Below, piece by piece: positions 41,857 through 51,028 of a stretch of DNA of 64,000 nt. The number at the start of each line of letters is the position of its first letter. Positions within the stretch are counted from its first letter, which is position 1. The stretch lies in the IMG/VR virus record IMGVR_UViG_3300015615_000629, positions 432,711 to 496,710 of that record; one strand, given 5' to 3'. The stretch is from a virus. Its lineage: Duplodnaviria > Heunggongvirae > Uroviricota > Caudoviricetes. Under the pieces are notes generated by a model. It was not told the origin of the DNA, made no database searches, and saw nothing but the letters and a program-made list of their open reading frames with translations. Made by a program: the position numbers and the translations under genes.

Positions 41857-42447
41857 ATGAGTTTTATAACATTTTTCTCTAACAACAAGAATGAAGTAGC
41901 ATCAATTATCTTTAGAGCCGATGTTACTACACCGCAACTACTTAGGACTGCTGAGAATAGATTTGCTACTGACAAGCCTGTTCGTCAAATGCTTTGTAGG
42001 CTTTTGCCTGAGTTCTTTTCTATCCTAGATAGTTGTCGCTCAGACCTCTTATTTCGTCCTTATCAAGAAGGGATTTCCCTTAAACGTATGGATGAAATTT
42101 TTCCTAGACCTAAATTAGTTGGTCGTGGCAAAACTTGTACTCGGCCGATAGTTATTATCAATAGTTTAGGCAAATCTACTTCTATGTCCTTTGATGCGGA
42201 CTATTTATTAGCTTATCAGCCGGCGTCAAGAGTACAGAGATTCTCTGTCGGAATAATGCATGGCTCTAAAGTTACTAAATTGTGTCAGAAAATTGGCGAT
42301 CAATGGAAAATGAGTCATAAACTTTCTGATTGGGATTTTTTTCACGAATTCCCTTTTACCCTGTCTTTTTCGAATAAAGATAAGGTTAATGACATCTGGA
42401 CTTTGGGCATAGCAAAGATTATAGACGAATGTTATGCTTGTTTTTAA
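41857..42447 (+). CDS. Hypothetical protein
   Basis: ATG-initiated ORF. Confidence 0.4.
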   Translation: MSFITFFSNNKNEVASIIFRADVTTPQLLRTAENRFATDKPVRQMLCRLLPEFFSILDSCRSDLLFRPYQEGISLKRMDEIFPRPKLVGRGKTCTRPIVIINSLGKSTSMSFDADYLLAYQPASRVQRFSVGIMHGSKVTKLCQKIGDQWKMSHKLSDWDFFHEFPFTLSFSNKDKVNDIWTLGIAKIIDECYACF

Positions 42448-43402
42448 TTCAGATTGTATTACTCAAAATTATCTACCCGATGCTTCGGTAGACCTGCTAA
42501 TCTGCGATCCCCCTTTTGGCATTGATGAAACCACGTTTCATAAGCATTACAAAAGGGATGAATCGTATGTAATTAATGGCTACGTTGAAGCTCCCTCGGA
42601 TTATTATCAATTTTCACTTGATTGGTTGACTCAAGCAAAGAGAGTCATGAAAAAAGACGCAACTCTTTACATTATATCGGGTTGGACAAATTTAAGGCAT
42701 ATATTAAATGCAGTTGAAAAAACCGGTTTTTCAACAATTAATCATTTAATTTGGAAATTTAATTTTGGCGTGGCAACCAAGAACAAGTATGTAAGTTCTC
42801 ATTATCACATACTTTATGTCACAACAGGCAAGCCAAAATTTAATACGTATTGCAGATTTGGTTCGCAAGAGAAGGCATTGGGTAAGTCCTTATTGTATCA
42901 GGACTTAGAAGATGTATTTGTGATAAACAAGGAATACATGCCAGGGAGCGTAAAGAATAAGAACAAGTTACCTGATGCTTTGGTGGAGAAGTTGGTACTT
43001 TATTCATCGTCTGTGGGGGATGTGGTTGGGGATTTCTTTTTAGGGAGTTTTACAACGGCATTCGTAGCTAAAAAGTTAGGGCGTATTCCTGTAGGATTTG
43101 AGGTTAACCCTGAGAGTTTCAATCATTACTTAGCAGAATTGGATGCTTTAGAATTAGGAAGTGGGTTAGATTCATTAAAGAAGGTTGTGAATACTATTCC
43201 TGTAAACCAGGGGAAGAGGATTAGTATTGCGGAAAGGGAAGCGATATTGACTGATTATCAGACTGGGATTGGTACGAAGAAGGAGATTATTGCTTATTTG
43301 TGTGATAAGTATGGAAGAGGACGTTTTGCGATAAAGAACATCTTGGATGAAAGTCTTAATTCTGATAATGCTGATCACAATAATATTGGAACTTCTATTT
43401 AG
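42434..43402 (+). CDS. DNA N6-adenine / N4-cytosine methyltransferase (beta class, N6_N4_Mtase)
   Basis: FNSDCITQNYLPDASVDLLICDPPFG (motif IV, DPPF) precedes GDVVGDFFLGSFTTAFVAKKLGR (motif I). The IV-before-I order marks beta-class amino-MTases. Confidence 0.7.
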   Translation: MLVFNSDCITQNYLPDASVDLLICDPPFGIDETTFHKHYKRDESYVINGYVEAPSDYYQFSLDWLTQAKRVMKKDATLYIISGWTNLRHILNAVEKTGFSTINHLIWKFNFGVATKNKYVSSHYHILYVTTGKPKFNTYCRFGSQEKALGKSLLYQDLEDVFVINKEYMPGSVKNKNKLPDALVEKLVLYSSSVGDVVGDFFLGSFTTAFVAKKLGRIPVGFEVNPESFNHYLAELDALELGSGLDSLKKVVNTIPVNQGKRISIAEREAILTDYQTGIGTKKEIIAYLCDKYGRGRFAIKNILDESLNSDNADHNNIGTSI

Positions 43403-43425: not shown

Positions 43426-43695
43426 GTGAGTAATCTTTATCAATATGGTCCTGATTTAGTTGCGTTATTGCGAGACAATGGCAATAAAGCATTAGTTAAA
43501 GTATTAAAAAGCAACAGGTATAAGTCTGGTGCTTTGTTTGATGTTTCTTGGAATGACTTAAGAAAACAGAAAGAAAAAAGAATTATTCCACGATTTGAAG
43601 ACCCATGTCCGACTTGTGGAACTGGCGGACATATGAGTGGCATAGAATGTCCAGGATGTGGATTTAAAGAATGGTATTCTCTATATTCTTTATGA
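43426..43695 (+). CDS. Small zinc-ribbon protein
   Basis: CPTCGTGGH...CPGCG. GTG start; no ATG available. Confidence 0.35.
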   Translation: MSNLYQYGPDLVALLRDNGNKALVKVLKSNRYKSGALFDVSWNDLRKQKEKRIIPRFEDPCPTCGTGGHMSGIECPGCGFKEWYSLYSL

Positions 43696-43758: not shown

Positions 43759-44223
43759 CTAGATGGTTCCGCAAAGATTAACTAAATGATCGACTTCTGC
43801 GTAATTAATGGTGACTTCTCCATCTTTAAACTCTAGATGGCTCAATATAATTCCCTTTGGGAAATCTTCTAAAATCCCCTCACAAAGTTCTTCTGAGAGA
43901 ATAACTGTAAAATCGCATTCTTTATCTAGCCGGCTGCTTGCTAATGGCAGTTGTTCGTATGACCTAACCTTATATGTTTTATAATTACTTAATGTTTTGC
44001 CTGAAGTAATTATAAGCATTTCATCCTGTAAACGGTTATAAATTCTTGTCAGCAAAGGAATGCTTATTCTATTGAAAAGAGGGTCGTCTCCCCAGCAGAA
44101 AATGGTATTATAATCTACCTGAGATTGTAACAATACTGCCAATGCTGTTTTATCACCAGCCGCTTCTAAGAGTCCTGTTTGTTCCCAATTTTCTCTTATT
44201 TCCCAATTTTTGTCTAATTCCAT
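43759..44223 (-). CDS. Hypothetical protein downstream of the portal
   Basis: ATG-initiated ORF. Confidence 0.45.
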   Translation of the reverse strand: MELDKNWEIRENWEQTGLLEAAGDKTALAVLLQSQVDYNTIFCWGDDPLFNRISIPLLTRIYNRLQDEMLIITSGKTLSNYKTYKVRSYEQLPLASSRLDKECDFTVILSEELCEGILEDFPKGIILSHLEFKDGEVTINYAEVDHLVNLCGTI

Positions 44224-44226
44224 AAT

Positions 44227-46767
44227 TTATCCTAAATCTGAATAATCAATTTCTTCTTGATCTTGTTGCTTGCTGTAAGATTGTATTTCAAGATCGTATT
44301 TCTTAATTTCTTCTTTAGAAGGTTCTGCCAATTCTGGCGAGTTTCTTTGTTGCGGTTGGTTTTGATCTTGCGGCTGTCCTTGAGGTTGTCCAATTTGGTC
44401 TTGTGGAATTCCCTCTTCCGGAGGTTGTTCGGGAGTTGGTTGGTTTTGGTTTTGATCAGGAGCGAGCATGGGGTTAGGGCCACCTGCTTCTGAGCCGATT
44501 TCTGTTTCACCTTGACCAGGAGTACCGAAGCCGAGGATGCCTGGATTGCTAGCGATAATTTGCATTCTAAGTTGTTCATATTGTTGCAATTTATTCCTAG
44601 AAATCTTAAGTTCCGCTTCTTTTTCTGGGATTCTTAGGAAATCTATCATGAGATCGAAATCCGAGAAGATGCCAGCGGATTTAAGAGCGGTAGCGTTTTG
44701 AATTCTATTATTCGTAACCTCTTGCATGCTAAGTTCTTGCCACCAAGAGGGAATTGTCATCTTGATGTTGAGGTCGCGGTATAATTGTTTTGGATAACCA
44801 AGCAACGTTAAATGACGTTCTGCTATGGCGTACAATCCATCTTCAACAGAGAGTTGAATTCTACGGATCATTTTGGCGAACTTAACGTCTCTGACTGAGA
44901 GGGTTATTCTCGTTGCATTAGGGTCTGTATTGGAGAAATAATCGTTAGGAAAGTTGAGTGCGGTATAAAGTTTATTTCGGAAATATAACGCATCGTCGAT
45001 TTCGCTCATATTCTGAGCCCCTGGCAAAGTATCAATTCTTGTTTGAGAATTTGCCCGTGTTGGCACCCAAATATCTTCATCGGCAGACGGAGCGAACCAA
45101 CGTTCTTCGGTAGCACTTGCTCCCTGCCCTGTTCCCCTCATAGTAGGAACCTTCTTCTTGCGATACAGCGATTTAATTCTTTCTAAATATGCTTCCGCTT
45201 TACCAGGAGGAAGATTTCCTACATCGATATAGAAAACACGGCGTTCAGGAGCCCTAACCAAACGCATAACAAGCATAGAGTCTTCCATCAATCTCAACTG
45301 ATGGGCTGGCCCTCTAGCTGGCTCGATTAAACTCTGTCCGTAAGGATAGAAAGTATTCCTATCATCGCCGATTCTAAAGTGAATAATTTGATTGGGGGCA
45401 AAGCGAATAGCCGAACTTTGATTCAATTCTTCTTCAGTGGCTTTAGTAACATCTGCTTTAGACAATGCCTGATAATCTGGGCCTTCGGGACTTTGTTGAA
45501 ATTCAACCAGTTTACCTTTGGTGGTTTCAATACGATAAACGCTTTCAGTAGCCAAATCGGCCAACTTAAAGATTCCTGCTTTTGGTTCATTTGGATCAAT
45601 AACTATTTCTAGGAATTTATCGCCATTAATGCAGAGTTGCTTTGTCCATTTCCACAAATTTCTATCAATGTTGAGACGGTCGCGAGCGAAGAAGAAATCT
45701 TCCAATTCTTTTGTCACTTCATCATTTTTACATTTTATTGTAAATAAATGGTCGTTTTCACCGGATTGGCAATTGTGTAAAATAAGGGATTTGGTGGCGA
45801 AGCACTTTAGTTTATCTACAGAAAGGTCATAAACTCTTATTTTTGAATTTTTACGGACGCCAACAACTTTTCGATAATCTTTCTTTTTAGCCAACCAGAA
45901 CATTTCGTCGGTGTGGTAGCCTTTGGTTTTTAGATGGTATCTGATTCCTTCCCATCCTCTGTCGAGCATTTGTTCAATTTGTTTTGTGGTTAAGCCTGCT
46001 TTGAGGCTTTTCATTACTTTGGCGACAAGTTCATCCTCTGGCTTCTTGGTTTCGTCTCTCCATTGGTTGATAAATGTTCTTTCAGATATCCAACTGTCCT
46101 CGAATGTAAAGATTCTTGGAAAAACGTTCTTTCTCAAAGGATTTAGGAGTGTATTTGGTTCCAATCTATAGAAAGGCATTAGGTGATCGCCAACTTTAAG
46201 ATCGCCACCTGCTCTCCAGGTTTCGTCACGCATTAGAACTAAATGGTCTTCTGTAATTACTTCGAAGCTGCCATCGTCTAATGATATTTTTATGGTTTCT
46301 TCGTCTTTAACATATCTTGGATTTTTGGCCCAACCAATGGAATAATCATGTTTTTCGTGGTCATAACCATAGACTAGGAAAGGCTCATCTTTCTTATTTT
46401 CTGCAAGCCATTCGATAGATTTATGTCCAAAATAGACTGTTTGAACGGGTGTATTAGCAGCAAAACATGCTTCATCGGCAATAACCGTCATTACATTTTC
46501 AATTTCAGGAACATTTCTTAATCTTTCATATTCCTTCATTCTGGATTGACGATTGGTAATACTGCTTAGATCAATAAAGTCGCTGCTATCTCTAAGGCGG
46601 ATGGTGCCTTGGGTGCCGCCGAAGGTTCCATCTTGACGGATATCCCGTATAACGTCGGGTCTTAGAACTCCAGCACCTGTCAAATCTTGAGATTTTTGAC
46701 GTTTGGAGATGGGATCATCTTCAGCAGCGTATGTGAATAACTTAAATAAATCAGCCCAGAATGGCAT
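44227..46767 (-). CDS. Portal protein, T4 gp20-like, interrupted by a mini-intein
   Basis: MSEIDDALYFRNKLYTALNFP, SLIEPA and other gp20-like blocks, at about 846 aa against about 520-580 aa expected. An insert with intein blocks A, B, F and G is present. The QNQ/PE-rich C-terminal tail is low-complexity. Confidence 0.75.
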   Translation of the reverse strand: MPFWADLFKLFTYAAEDDPISKRQKSQDLTGAGVLRPDVIRDIRQDGTFGGTQGTIRLRDSSDFIDLSSITNRQSRMKEYERLRNVPEIENVMTVIADEACFAANTPVQTVYFGHKSIEWLAENKKDEPFLVYGYDHEKHDYSIGWAKNPRYVKDEETIKISLDDGSFEVITEDHLVLMRDETWRAGGDLKVGDHLMPFYRLEPNTLLNPLRKNVFPRIFTFEDSWISERTFINQWRDETKKPEDELVAKVMKSLKAGLTTKQIEQMLDRGWEGIRYHLKTKGYHTDEMFWLAKKKDYRKVVGVRKNSKIRVYDLSVDKLKCFATKSLILHNCQSGENDHLFTIKCKNDEVTKELEDFFFARDRLNIDRNLWKWTKQLCINGDKFLEIVIDPNEPKAGIFKLADLATESVYRIETTKGKLVEFQQSPEGPDYQALSKADVTKATEEELNQSSAIRFAPNQIIHFRIGDDRNTFYPYGQSLIEPARGPAHQLRLMEDSMLVMRLVRAPERRVFYIDVGNLPPGKAEAYLERIKSLYRKKKVPTMRGTGQGASATEERWFAPSADEDIWVPTRANSQTRIDTLPGAQNMSEIDDALYFRNKLYTALNFPNDYFSNTDPNATRITLSVRDVKFAKMIRRIQLSVEDGLYAIAERHLTLLGYPKQLYRDLNIKMTIPSWWQELSMQEVTNNRIQNATALKSAGIFSDFDLMIDFLRIPEKEAELKISRNKLQQYEQLRMQIIASNPGILGFGTPGQGETEIGSEAGGPNPMLAPDQNQNQPTPEQPPEEGIPQDQIGQPQGQPQDQNQPQQRNSPELAEPSKEEIKKYDLEIQSYSKQQDQEEIDYSDLG
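45772..46467 (-). other. Hint-domain mini-intein (232 aa) within the portal gene
   Basis: Intein residue 1 is Cys in CFAANTPVQTV (block A). Block B is TxxH, in SFEVITEDHLVLM. The C-terminus is KIRVYDLSVDKLKCFATKSLILHN followed by +1 Cys (HNC). No LAGLIDADG/HNH endonuclease domain fits in the middle. Confidence 0.6.
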
Positions 46768-46822: not shown

Positions 46823-47365
46823 ATGAGAAACACAGTATTTGTCATAAGTCACGTAGGAGCAGACGCCGAAACGTTTGTTTCAATACTAAATGAGAACAGC
46901 CGTATAAAAATAGAAAAAAGAAATATAGTTTATAAACATCCTGAAGATTTACAAAATCTCTGGGAAACCAAACATAAAAACGCCAGTTCGTTAGCCGTCT
47001 ATGGAGATTTGATACTTTACAACCAACAATTCCTTTGTAAGAAAATTTATAATTTAGCCAAATTCATTTATCTGGTTAGGGAACCAGCCGGAACGTTAGG
47101 AAACATTTCAATGGCGACCCCAGAACTCTACTACAGATTTAGATTAAGACGCATGTGCGAGATGGCCAAAGAAACTCCCAATGCGTTGTTAATCACACAT
47201 CAGGACTTAGTTCTAGGGAAAGATTTAGGCTTGAGAAATTTCCTAAACCTAAGAGAGGAAATAACTTACGAATTTAAACCTTCCGAGAATTCGGTAAAAG
47301 TAGACAAATCTTGCGAGGAGTGTTACGAGAGATATTTGTATTATTTGAAGGAATATATAAAATGA
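46823..47365 (+). CDS. Hypothetical protein (weak sulfotransferase-fold resemblance)
   Basis: The VFVISHVGADAETF P-loop-like stretch and LVREP are the only hints. Confidence 0.35.
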   Translation: MRNTVFVISHVGADAETFVSILNENSRIKIEKRNIVYKHPEDLQNLWETKHKNASSLAVYGDLILYNQQFLCKKIYNLAKFIYLVREPAGTLGNISMATPELYYRFRLRRMCEMAKETPNALLITHQDLVLGKDLGLRNFLNLREEITYEFKPSENSVKVDKSCEECYERYLYYLKEYIK

Positions 47366-47884: not shown

Positions 47885-49690
47885 TTACCAGTTAAATTCT
47901 CTTAGTAATTTATCATATTTTCTTCTAAATTGGAACTCCGGTGGAAGATTTTCATCATAAGAATCCAATTTTGGGTCAAATACAGGTTCTTCAACAACTT
48001 CAGGCAATCCTTCTCTAATTGCTGCGTGGATTTCGGCCATTAAATCTGGTGTAATTTGTGGTTTTAGAACTTCATGAGAAATATTTGCTCCAACCGGAAG
48101 ATTTCTATAATTCGTATTTATAGCATACATGGACATTGCCATAGCCATAATAGCATCGTCGTGCTTCCCTTTTTGAGCTTGGGCTTTCTTGGTTCTGGCA
48201 TTAAACAAGAAACTTCTTAGTTCTTCTGTAAATCTGTAACTTCTAATTAATAGCGATTTATTGAGAAGTCTAGACTGAAGTGCTTCTAGGAAAACAGGTC
48301 TGTTTGCCGATGAGGTTTTTACGCCAGGAGCGACTTTTTTACTTTTATTTTCATCATAGAAAATAGATTCATATTGAAGATCATGTTCTAAGTAACTTAA
48401 AACAGCGGCACCATAAGAACTTTGTTCAACAATAACTAGGGCTGTGTTGTAGTAAAGTCCCATGCTTCTTAGGTTTATGGCAAATTCTCTGGATGGAATT
48501 GTGTTGCTATAAAATTCTGCCACTTGTTCCATTTTGTTAATATCGATAATTTGATAGCAACTATTATCGGCAGGGCCACCAGTTCCTTCGGCACAGTCTG
48601 CTCCAATAACGTATTCATGTCCTTCTATTGGCTCTTTCCAAATCCACAAGGCTCCTATATCCCATTCATGTTTTTGGGCTGTGGCGTTACGCCATTCTTT
48701 CATAAGAATTCTAGCGGGTATAATTTCAGATACTTCCCTTGATAGTTGAACGATTAGGTCGGATGGAAAGAAGGTAGAACCGGAACCGATAAAACTTCTA
48801 AGAATTTCTTGTTTCCAGCCTTGTTCACCAAGCATTGCCTTGGTGTCGTTTACCCATTTTTTATCTGAATATTGCGGGTGTTCCCAGTAATCTAAATCAA
48901 TTACATGGAACGGACCTTGGCCTGATTCTGCTTTATGATAGGTTTCTTCATACCAGTTACCTACGCCATTAACCGTGGAAACAACGATACATTTACCACC
49001 GGTAGCGATAGTAGGATAAAGTGATTTCCAATGGGTTTCCATATCAGCGACGAATGCAGCTTCGTCGATGATTAGAAAGGTCATAGATTTACCACGAGCG
49101 GCTTCAGGAGTATAAAACTGAAGTCTGGAGCTGGTTTCTTTGAATAATTTTTCGTGTTTTGTGGGCGGTTCAACTTTCTTGTCATACATCCAAAGAGGGA
49201 GATGTTCTAACATTCTGTCAACAATTTCACCGGCTGACATGGCTTCACGGTCGGTTTTAGAAGCAACAAGCAGCTGTTGGTCTTTTTTGTACATACATCG
49301 CCACGCACCCCAAATAACGGTAACAGTGGTTAATCCACCTTGACGGAATTTGCTGATTATATTAAACCTATACTTTTGGTAGTCCTTGATTACCTTGCGT
49401 TGATATTTATAAGGGATAAAGGGAACCATACCGAAAGCTGGATGCATGATTTTTACGTAACGGTGACAGAAGTAGGGGAAACTTTTTACACATTTCTCTA
49501 TTTCTTGATATTGTCGTTCGGCTGAGAATTTTTCTGGATTTTCGTTCCAATCAATTTCTAGCTCGTATTTGTCAAATTCGTAAAATTTAGAATAGGCTTC
49601 CCATTCCGGAGTACGAACAATATCTTTAACCCTTGTGAATTTTCTGTAAAATTCTTCAAACGGTTCTGGTAAACTTTCTAAGTGGTCCAT
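47885..49690 (-). CDS. Terminase large subunit, T4 gp17-like
   Basis: Walker A is ISKFRQGGLTT, Walker B is FLIIDEAAF, and a C-terminal RNaseH-like nuclease region is present (DCAEG...D). Confidence 0.85.
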   Translation of the reverse strand: MDHLESLPEPFEEFYRKFTRVKDIVRTPEWEAYSKFYEFDKYELEIDWNENPEKFSAERQYQEIEKCVKSFPYFCHRYVKIMHPAFGMVPFIPYKYQRKVIKDYQKYRFNIISKFRQGGLTTVTVIWGAWRCMYKKDQQLLVASKTDREAMSAGEIVDRMLEHLPLWMYDKKVEPPTKHEKLFKETSSRLQFYTPEAARGKSMTFLIIDEAAFVADMETHWKSLYPTIATGGKCIVVSTVNGVGNWYEETYHKAESGQGPFHVIDLDYWEHPQYSDKKWVNDTKAMLGEQGWKQEILRSFIGSGSTFFPSDLIVQLSREVSEIIPARILMKEWRNATAQKHEWDIGALWIWKEPIEGHEYVIGADCAEGTGGPADNSCYQIIDINKMEQVAEFYSNTIPSREFAINLRSMGLYYNTALVIVEQSSYGAAVLSYLEHDLQYESIFYDENKSKKVAPGVKTSSANRPVFLEALQSRLLNKSLLIRSYRFTEELRSFLFNARTKKAQAQKGKHDDAIMAMAMSMYAINTNYRNLPVGANISHEVLKPQITPDLMAEIHAAIREGLPEVVEEPVFDPKLDSYDENLPPEFQFRRKYDKLLREFNW

Positions 49691-49703: not shown

Positions 49704-49856
49704 ATGCCGCAGAAACGCAAATTTTACGATCCAATAGTTATTGCTGGTGTTTTAACTGTAAGTTTTACGATTTTAAAAGAAGTTGGAAAAGCCATTGTTA
49801 GCTTTGTAACATATACATTGCTCAAAAAGTGGTGGGAGAAAAGAGATAAAAAATGA
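49704..49856 (+). CDS. 50-aa membrane peptide
   Basis: ATG...TGA overlapping the start of the M28 peptidase gene (ATGA). Central TM helix IVIAGVLTVSFTIL. Confidence 0.3.
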   Translation: MPQKRKFYDPIVIAGVLTVSFTILKEVGKAIVSFVTYTLLKKWWEKRDKK

Positions 49857-51028
49857 ATGATAAAAGACTTATTTTAGTTGTTATCTGTTTGTCGTTAGTT
49901 GGTGGATTTATTGTTTACAATAAATTTTATGAAAAACCACATTTTTCAAATTTACCTGAAGATGCCCCTTCAACGCCTTTCTCTCTACCAGACAAAGAAG
50001 AAGATCCGCTAGAATCCATTAAAGAGTCTGAACTTACAGAGATGCTTAATTATTTGGCTTCTGATGAATTAGAAGGGCGAATGAGCGGCAAAAAGGGGAA
50101 TGTGGTAGCGGCTGAGTTTATAAAGAAGAAATTCGAAGAATTTGGTTTGCCAACGGAATATGACAAATTTAGGATTAGTAGAGAAAATCCAGGCCCTAAA
50201 AATGAGACTGGGGATGACTTTACTCAAAACATTTACGCTTGGATAGAAGGTAACGACCCGAATCTAAAAGATGAAGTTGTAATCATAGGGGCTCATATGG
50301 ATCATATTGGGTATGGCCCTTCTATGAGTAGAGCCCCAAATCGTCGAGAAGTACATAATGGTGCTGACGATAATGGGAGCGGGACGGTTGCACTAATTGA
50401 AATTGCAGAAGCATTTTCATGTGTTAAAGATAAGGTTAAGAGAACTGTAGTGTTTCAGGCATATTCTGCGGAAGAGATGGGTTTGATTGGTTCTCGTCAT
50501 TATTGCGATAATCCTAAGTTTCCGAGAGATAAGCCTGATATTAAGAAGACAGTCATGATGTGCAACCTCGATATGGTTGGATATTTGAATAAAGGTGTTT
50601 ATTCTCTAGCTTGGGGTGCTGGGGATAGTTCTTTGGACATTAGCCGAATAATTGAAGAGTTAAATGAGAAATACACTTTTGCTAGAAAAGTGACTAGTAG
50701 GGGAAGTGGCGGTAGTGATCATGCTAGTTTTTACAACAAAAGGGTTCCGGTGGCTTTCCTTCATACTGGATTACACCCTTACTACCACACACCAGATGAT
50801 GATGTAGATAAGATTAATTTTCAGGGCATGGAACAAATAGCCAAATATGCTTTTGAATTGGCGTGGAAAGTGTGCCAAGGTGAAACGCCGCCAAAATTCA
50901 ATCTTGCTACTTTTAAGGAAATGGAATATACCCATGACCACGGACATCCTGATGTAGAATCTGAAATTCATAGCTATCATAAGCATGAACATGAACACGG
51001 GCACAATCATTCACACGAGGAAAAGTAA
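49853..51028 (+). CDS. M28-family zinc aminopeptidase, membrane-anchored, with a His-rich C-terminal tail
   Basis: All five metal-ligand blocks are present: GAHMDHIG, GADDNGSG, EEMGLIGS, CNLDMVGY and GGSDHASF. N-terminal TM helix. The tail is HDHGHPDVESEIHSYHKHEHEHGHNHSHEEK. Confidence 0.7.
   Translation: MNDKRLILVVICLSLVGGFIVYNKFYEKPHFSNLPEDAPSTPFSLPDKEEDPLESIKESELTEMLNYLASDELEGRMSGKKGNVVAAEFIKKKFEEFGLPTEYDKFRISRENPGPKNETGDDFTQNIYAWIEGNDPNLKDEVVIIGAHMDHIGYGPSMSRAPNRREVHNGADDNGSGTVALIEIAEAFSCVKDKVKRTVVFQAYSAEEMGLIGSRHYCDNPKFPRDKPDIKKTVMMCNLDMVGYLNKGVYSLAWGAGDSSLDISRIIEELNEKYTFARKVTSRGSGGSDHASFYNKRVPVAFLHTGLHPYYHTPDDDVDKINFQGMEQIAKYAFELAWKVCQGETPPKFNLATFKEMEYTHDHGHPDVESEIHSYHKHEHEHGHNHSHEEK

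Follow-up and report, generated by a model that had tools for sequence, protein, structure and literature searches.

In a 64,000-nucleotide stretch of a tailed-phage genome (Duplodnaviria; Heunggongvirae; Uroviricota; Caudoviricetes; IMG/VR record IMGVR_UViG_3300015615_000629, positions 432,711 to 496,710), the gene for the portal protein carries an additional in-frame segment of 232 amino acids (aa). The question raised by this locus is whether the segment is an intein that is removed by protein splicing and, if so, from what it descends and why it has been kept. The whole 64,000-nucleotide stretch is termed the window below; portal residues are numbered on the 846-aa precursor, and intein residues from Cys101 of the portal as residue 1. 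Portal aa 101–332 very probably form a canonical class-1 intein that interrupts the T4 gp20-type portal gene of a huge phage, is descended from an HNH-endonuclease intein, and is spliced out to give the mature portal.

The portal gene and the anatomy of its intein

A single long open reading frame (ORF) spans the region in the ORF list, running on the minus strand from 44227 to 46767 and encoding the 846-aa portal precursor plus a stop codon. The translation of 45772–46467 on the plus strand is riddled with stops, so that reading was rejected and the feature lies on the minus strand. The Pfam family Portal_T4 (PF07230) matches portal aa 348–719 on the C-extein (6.1e-71), and PHROG 213 (portal) matches the protein at 2.6e-68. 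After computational splicing, residues 77–491 match the gp20 structures 3JA7, 6UZC and 9LU6 (about 1.6e-26). The Pfam profile and the homology to solved gp20 identify the host protein as a portal of the T4 gp20 type. When 1.84 billion representative proteins were scanned in full with the C-extein, 3851 homologues were returned. Conservation is given below for 121 aligned sequences, comprising the window portal and its best 120 homologues, which are 51–60% identical to the query. The elements of the gene are as follows.

44227–46767, minus strand: portal precursor ORF, T4 gp20-type, with the in-frame intein (ORF list; Pfam, PHROG and gp20 structure matches).
46468–46767, minus strand: N-extein, portal aa 1–100, C-terminal end ...NVMTVIADEA (computed coordinates).
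45772–46467, minus strand: very probable class-1 mini-intein, 232 aa, portal aa 101–332 (Pfam PF14890, Hint-fold model, matches to solved inteins, invariant catalytic residues).
46426–46467, minus strand: block A with the predicted nucleophile Cys1, CFAANTPVQTVYFG (C1 invariant, 121/121; T6, T10 and G14 conserved).
46243–46254, minus strand: block B, T72-E-D74-H75 (TxxH; T and H 121/121, D 120/121).
46054–46122, minus strand: putative HNH_3 remnant, beta-hairpin and first helix, intein 116–138, FPRIFTFEDSWISERTFINQWRD (MAFFT alignment with HNH_3-bearing inteins).
45889–46041, minus strand: four-helix, helix-turn-helix (HTH)-like bundle of the insert, intein 143–193.
45772–45873, minus strand: C-terminal half of the Hint domain, containing blocks F (V212-Y-D214-L-S-V) and G (...LILH231-N232) (V, D, V, F, H and N 121/121; S 120/121).
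45769–45771, minus strand: +1 Cys, portal aa 333, first residue of the C-extein and predicted trans-esterification nucleophile (Cys-Gln 121/121).
44230–45771, minus strand: C-extein, portal aa 333–846, with the wing/stem/clip/crown core to about aa 720 followed by a Q/P/E-rich tail.

Starting at the N terminus, the N-extein ends in the motif [YFM]ADEA, which is kept in all 121 sequences with D98 invariant, and which aligns with ...EIVSDA99 of T4 gp20. The chain then enters the intein at portal aa 101 with CFAANTPVQTV, passes through TEDH at intein 72–75, and leaves through VYDLSVDKLKCFATKSLILHN at aa 312–332, after which the C-extein begins with Cys333. C1, T72/H75, V212/D214/V217, F223, H231-N232 and the Cys-Gln pair at +1/+2 are invariant (121/121), and D74 and S216 are each present in 120. 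A block-F histidine, common in inteins but not universal, is found in 114 of the 121 sequences; the window copy has Leu220 at this position.

The Pfam profile Intein_splicing (PF14890) matches the isolated segment with 37.4 bits (cut-off 35.8). Public pipelines already tag homologues with this profile, and one homologue has been named ‘intein/homing endonuclease’ by JGI. The NCBIfam search also gives a weak match to the intein-containing RtcB family NF052663. Sequence matches in the PDB are weak, yet are located on blocks B and F/G of the Mtu RecA mini-intein. An AlphaFold2 model of the intein, built on 40 family members, has a mean predicted local distance difference test score (pLDDT) of 96.5 and a predicted template-modelling score (pTM) of 0.90. 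When the model is compared with the PDB using Foldseek, the top 28 matches are solved inteins, and the 50-row list contains only inteins and bacterial intein-like (BIL) Hint domains, with a probability of 1.0. Target-normalised TM-scores of 0.73–0.83 are reached by the best matches, the Ssp DnaB, Mtu RecA, Ssp/Npu DnaE and Npu DnaB inteins. A chance motif or an ORF artefact is thus rejected by the profile, the fold and the homologues. In a search of the six-frame translation of the 64-kb window with a hidden Markov model of the family, the portal alone was matched and no further intein was found.

The 232-aa segment is a clean in-frame insertion that is precisely absent from homologous portals. 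Once spliced, the query reads ...VIADEA-CQSGEND, and aligns with ...IVSDA99-I100VYEDD of T4 gp20 without a gap across the junction, within the wing domain. The best match in the C-extein scan, P0121 (610 aa, 59% identity), is intein-free with the junction ...MADEA-CQKGEN.... P0309 and P0329 are intein-free at the same site, with the junction ADEA-CQ.GEN, and P0126 is empty there (ADEA-CQ.GEN) but bears an intein elsewhere. The cysteine at the +1 position is retained in these empty alleles of the clade (ADEA-CQ). P0121 is 72% identical to the intein-bearing P0014 and P0031, and only 58–62% identical to the other empty alleles. The empty alleles are therefore not each other's nearest relatives, giving at least three independent intein-free lineages, which are most simply explained as rare precise losses.

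An earlier note on this DNA, made by reading the letters and the translated ORFs, had proposed a 232-aa mini-intein at 45772–46467. Its limits and the motifs that it quoted are exact to the base when computed from the minus-strand codons. The Cys1 of block A, the TxxH some 70 aa further on and the HN/Cys end that it listed are all present, and the fold agrees with its description of a complete Hint domain. The alignment to intein-free homologues that it proposed as a check gives the clean 232-aa insertion (P0121 and T4 gp20). Homologues having the segment without the boundary residues, which it had named as evidence against an intein, did not appear: the 121 aligned sequences keep C1, block B, the block-F Asp, HN and Cys+1 (with D74 in 120/121). 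It had also put the portal at about 270 aa longer than gp20-type proteins. The extra length is real, but is not all intein, about 125 aa of it being the Q/P/E-rich tail at the C terminus. This tail (44230–44607, minus strand; portal aa 721–846) is of low complexity (..PDQNQNQPTPEQPPEEGIPQDQIGQPQGQPQDQNQPQQ..), and T4 gp20 has no such tail.

The middle region, inheritance and selection

The insert between blocks B and F comprises a beta-hairpin (intein 118–128) and five helices (129–193), about 100 aa in all. It is predicted with confidence both in the context of the full intein and alone (pLDDT 89), and eight of its positions are invariant with six more nearly so. The short helical middle region described in the earlier note is indeed helical, but is a folded domain of about 100 aa and not a linker. 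That note's statement that there is no LAGLIDADG or HNH nuclease is borne out. Pfam, NCBIfam and PHROG scans of the query gave no match to a nuclease family (LAGLIDADG, HNH, GIY-YIG or VSR) between blocks B and F, and the HNH core is deleted in the alignment described below. A search of PDB sequences with the insert profile matched nothing but de novo designed helical repeats, a spurious similarity between helices, and a fold search of the insert against BFVD gave no match with an E-value <0.3.

Related inteins are present in more distant T4-type portals (P0201, P0245, P0270, P0196 and P0227), matching the family profile with E-values of 1e-19 to 1e-31. In these a Pfam HNH_3 endonuclease follows directly after the N-terminal Hint half. 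A joint MAFFT alignment places FPRIFTFEDSWISERTFINQW of the query against ...YNHVYTC..NGWISEHKLIAEW of the distant inteins (as in P0245). In P0245 NGWISEHKLIAEW continues into VVHHLDFNGKNNNPENL. The catalytic stretch that comes next in these inteins, VVHHLDFNGKNNNPENLKIM..H (HH.D.N..NN...NL....H in P0245, P0270 and P0201), and a long linker are missing from the mini-intein, while the HTH ahead of the C-terminal Hint half is common to the mini-intein and its HNH_3-bearing relatives. A functional homing endonuclease is thus lacking, as in other mini-inteins, and of an intact HNH domain the leading hairpin-helix alone aligns. From this alignment we infer that the insert is the remnant of an HNH homing endonuclease, which would have lost its core and retained the hairpin-helix at its start and the accessory domain for DNA binding.

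The HNH_3 inteins of these five portals and of P0228 are located at several positions 3–25 residues upstream of ADEA-C, within or just before the motif PEIxxALDIYADEA. The full-length HNH inteins were rejected as alleles of the same site, their junctions reading 3–25 residues upstream. The N-terminal wing motif appears to have been invaded repeatedly by inteins.

Among the retrieved portals with ≥50% identity and a readable junction the site is occupied in 199 of 203 (about 98%) and empty in four; the source contigs of these portals are up to about 690 kb in length. The best 120 homologues all have an intein of 229–241 aa at this site, on metagenomic contigs of up to about 630 kb, and when a search was seeded with an empty allele 117 of the 120 portals returned were still occupied. 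The best match to the window portal in annotated collections is the 595-kb uncultured phage LR756511.1; a look-up of the identical portal sequence among public assemblies gave no record. Three portal-bearing contigs are labelled in NCBI as archaeal metagenome-assembled genomes, of Thorarchaeota (P0013, 118 kb), Hermodarchaeia (P0321) and Crenarchaeota (P0071, 546 kb); these are probably huge-phage contigs binned with archaea.

Pairwise distances in the intein and the extein are correlated with r = 0.77 (Mantel test, r being reached by 0 of 999 permutations), and the distances in the two halves of the extein are also correlated at 0.77. Co-variation of intein and extein as tight as that of one extein half with the other points to vertical descent. 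The rate of protein evolution in the intein is about 1.5 times that of the extein. The intein and the extein have nearly the same GC content at third codon positions (GC3; 0.349 and 0.346, respectively), and with matching GC3 and co-varying distances a recent horizontal acquisition was rejected. Ratios of non-synonymous to synonymous substitution (dN/dS) were calculated pairwise by the Nei–Gojobori method from the coding DNA of seven close relatives (nine pairs). The values are 0.043 for the extein core, 0.052 for Hint, 0.052 for the insert and 0.037 for the HTH part of the insert. Purifying selection on the insert is thus as strong as on the portal core. In the C-terminal tail of the portal the rate of evolution is about three times that of the core (dN/dS 0.13 vs 0.04). 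The distribution and co-divergence point to an intein that is near-fixed and vertically inherited across the huge-phage clade, and that is unusual mainly in its near-unchanged retention clade-wide.

The proposed splicing pathway and its alternatives

The residues present would suffice for the four-step class-1 pathway. Following translation of the 846-aa precursor and folding of the Hint domain, Cys1 would initiate an N–S acyl shift at Ala100-Cys101. Cys+1 (aa 333) would then attack the thioester to form a branched intermediate, and cyclisation of Asn232 with the help of His231 would release the 232-aa (27-kDa) intein. A final S–N shift would leave a 614-aa portal with a contiguous wing-domain motif ...IADEA-CQSGEN.... 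The functional dodecamer is expected from the spliced protein only, so portal function, head assembly and DNA packaging would be splicing-dependent. The ancestor is envisaged as an HNH-endonuclease intein whose nuclease core was deleted after fixation in the huge-phage clade, in which about 98% of alleles are occupied. The hairpin-helix and HTH domain would have been kept, probably as part of the folding unit required for efficient splicing, a Hint–endonuclease ‘mutualism’. The homing cycle and the mutualism of Hint and homing endonuclease (HEN) are both established ideas (PMC8966425). Near-fixation, nuclease loss and vertical descent are together consistent with the post-fixation phase of that cycle, and a remnant that is kept under strong selection is consistent with the reported mutualism (PMC8966425).

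A number of observations weigh against this account. When the whole portal is scored PF14890 reaches only 34.1 bits, under its cut-off of 35.8, and TIGR01445 (intein_Nterm, NCBIfam) scores 19.9 against a cut-off of 24.5. The window intein departs from the family at 15 of 71 (21%) positions that are ≥90% conserved, compared with 20 of 200 (10%) in the extein (Fisher p = 0.023); among the intein changes are Leu220 for the block-F His, Gly4 to Ala (Gly in 117/121), Cys34 to Gly, and Arg76 to Leu beside block B. Splicing, in the window portal and in all members of the family, is predicted from sequence, and the HNH ancestry is deduced from one multiple alignment with inteins at nearby, non-identical sites. 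The nine dN/dS pairs are non-independent, and several of them approach saturation in dS; the same dN/dS picture is given by the least diverged of them (dS 0.24–0.33).

The window portal is the most divergent member of the family that was retrieved. The indispensable splicing residues are intact in its intein, while the changes at conserved positions suggest that splicing could be slow or impaired, and it could be slower than in the consensus family. Two extra cysteines of the family, in VYC34WDF (111/120) and NFC224 (110/120), are both lost in the window copy, being replaced by Gly and Ala respectively, and there is a Cys at 222 instead.

The selection acting on the insert could also be read as a sign of domestication, although this is unlikely. 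The intein would still splice, but the excised 27-kDa protein or the unspliced precursor would have a function of its own, as an HTH DNA-binding factor produced at the same time as the portal, or as a timing or redox switch by which dodecamerisation of an aggregation-prone portal is delayed. Such a function would explain strong purifying selection on a nuclease-less insert, and the intein would be a clade-defining module and not a mere parasite. A decaying parasite should shed its insert or vanish, so that near-fixation across the clade is unexpected for one; here the dN/dS of the insert, and of its HTH part, is as low as that of Hint and the portal core, the fold is HTH-like, the length is confined to a narrow range in 120 diverged homologues, and the eight invariant and six nearly invariant positions are kept. 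Structural mutualism of Hint and HEN, however, accounts for this retention without any new function (PMC8966425), and misfolding of the precursor of an essential protein would be selected against anyway. Moreover the empty alleles, in at least three lineages nested among occupied ones, indicate that the intein is dispensable.

That the segment does not splice at all is very improbable. It would then be a Hint-derived domain, either integral to the wing domain of the mature portal or undergoing BIL-like autocleavage without extein ligation. Its presence in about 98% of the clade would be in keeping with this, as would the window copy, which has no block-F His and deviates at several conserved Hint positions, and BIL domains do occur among the structural matches. 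These rank below the inteins, however. BIL domains are Hint domains that lack a conserved +1 nucleophile, cleave instead of splicing and occur in the variable parts of proteins that are not conserved, whereas here the segment interrupts a conserved motif in an essential protein, splitting a sequence that is contiguous in intein-free members of the clade and in T4 gp20. The intein-free alleles show the exactly ligated junction, and the residues for all four steps, including Cys+1, are invariant in 121 sequences, which is hard to explain without splicing. Scarcely any probability attaches to an intein that is still mobile, homing through a free-standing endonuclease that is encoded elsewhere in the phage and acts in trans, with the HTH providing target recognition. 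The HTH domain is retained under selection, and the portals of this clade are an intein hot-spot, two further sites being occupied by HNH and LAGLIDADG inteins, and distant portals having related HNH inteins 3–25 aa upstream. Yet intein and extein diverge together as tightly as the extein halves and do not differ in composition, the genes adjacent to the portal have no nuclease match, and the clade has almost run out of empty target sites. A class-1 intein that is spliced from the portal, and has lost the core of an HNH nuclease, is thus the preferred reading.

Neighbouring genes and known systems

Some homologues have inteins at further sites. P0132 (1665 aa) has three, comprising a mini-intein of the window type, a larger one at VYRL-C...HN-SRAPERR and an HNH-type at TLPGA-C...N-SNLGE. 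P0124 and P0126 belong to the same group, and matches to LAGLIDADG (PF14528) occur among the multi-intein portals. In the window portal only the first site is filled; the empty equivalents of the others lie on the minus strand near aa 604 (LVMRLV-RAPERR, about 44955) and aa 679 (TLPGA-QNMSEIDD, about 44730).

Just upstream of the portal is the gene for TerL (47885–49690, minus strand, 601 aa; PHROG 2, 4.6e-42). TerL is a common intein host, and is intein-free here. The ORFs that flank the portal, at 46823–47365 (plus strand, 180 aa) and 43759–44223 (minus strand, 154 aa), are not matched by any Pfam or PHROG family. An opposite-strand gene of 198–207 aa, similar in size to the 180-aa ORF, is found just upstream of the portal in seven related loci. 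An 89-aa ORF at 43426–43695 (plus strand) ends in a zinc-ribbon-like motif, CPTCG...CPGCG, and has no family match. An N6/N4 DNA methyltransferase (42434–43402, plus strand; PF01555, 1.5e-28) and an M28-family peptidase (49853–51028, plus strand; PF04389, 1.4e-41) adjoin the packaging genes. A free-standing nuclease beside the portal was rejected, the neighbours being TerL, the DNA methylase, the M28 peptidase and unannotated small ORFs. There are no tRNA genes in the whole window.

The intein has consequences for annotation, since this marker will be given the wrong size or a faulty alignment by gene callers and in portal phylogenies of huge phages unless the 232 aa, together with up to two more inteins in relatives, are removed. 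For the study of intein evolution some 200 diverged, vertically inherited copies, with rare precise losses and full-length HNH relatives nearby, constitute a natural data set. The family would capture the post-fixation stage of the homing cycle, and could be used to test whether nuclease remnants are retained through Hint–endonuclease mutualism. For biotechnology it adds a set of compact Cys1/Cys+1 inteins that exist in many natural variants. In phage biology, head assembly would be gated by protein splicing, which is unstudied in T4-type portals.

Portal inteins have been documented in actinobacteriophages, in mycobacteriophage cluster C1 (Kelley et al. 2016, PMC5050341). Those of the actinobacteriophages fall into five polyphyletic groups that are mostly LAGLIDADG-bearing and sporadic, with phylogenies often conflicting with those of the exteins (Gosselin et al. 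2025, bioRxiv 10.1101/2025.01.02.630785). In both cases the portal gene of a tailed phage is interrupted, and here too maturation of the portal would require protein splicing. The actinobacteriophage portals are of a different family, however, whereas the present intein lies in a T4 gp20-type portal of huge phages, has no nuclease core, occupies 199 of 203 alleles and is co-divergent with its extein. No earlier account of an intein in a portal of the gp20 or T4 type, or of a huge phage, emerged from literature searches, portal inteins being reported for actinobacteriophages only.

The Hint fold, Cys1, TxxH, block-F Asp and terminal HN are shared with the class-1 mini-inteins Ssp DnaB, Mtu RecA delta-I, Npu DnaB and Npu/Ssp DnaE. 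Unlike these mini-inteins, which are 130–160 aa in length and 11–16% identical in sequence, the window intein has a folded domain of about 100 aa where an endonuclease would be inserted, and lacks the block-F His. A class of in-frame HNH-endonuclease inteins was reportedly described by Dalgaard et al. in 1997. The HNH_3 inteins of distant T4-type portals have homologous Hint halves, a GW(I/K)xE(H/R)xxIxEW hairpin-helix opening the insert and an HTH that precedes the C-terminal half of Hint, all in common with the present intein. They differ in having the catalytic core and a linker of about 100–150 aa, both absent here, and in sites that are 3–25 residues upstream.

In PhoVMA, TliVMA and PI-TkoII a degenerate endonuclease or an HTH accessory domain is found within a splicing-competent intein (Beyer et al. 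2022, PMC8966425). Retention of an inactive nuclease scaffold or HTH domain is common to these and the window intein, the cause proposed there being Hint–HEN mutualism after fixation (PMC8966425). Those are archaeal inteins of LAGLIDADG type in the VMA ATPase, whereas here the remnant would be HNH-derived and the host is a phage structural protein. In-frame HNH inteins and mini-inteins with decayed nucleases were already known (bioRxiv 10.1101/2025.01.02.630785; PMC8966425), and in kind the present intein is ordinary. It is set apart by its location in a T4 gp20-type portal of huge phages, its vertical fixation across the clade, and a putative HNH/HTH remnant that is as conserved as the portal itself.

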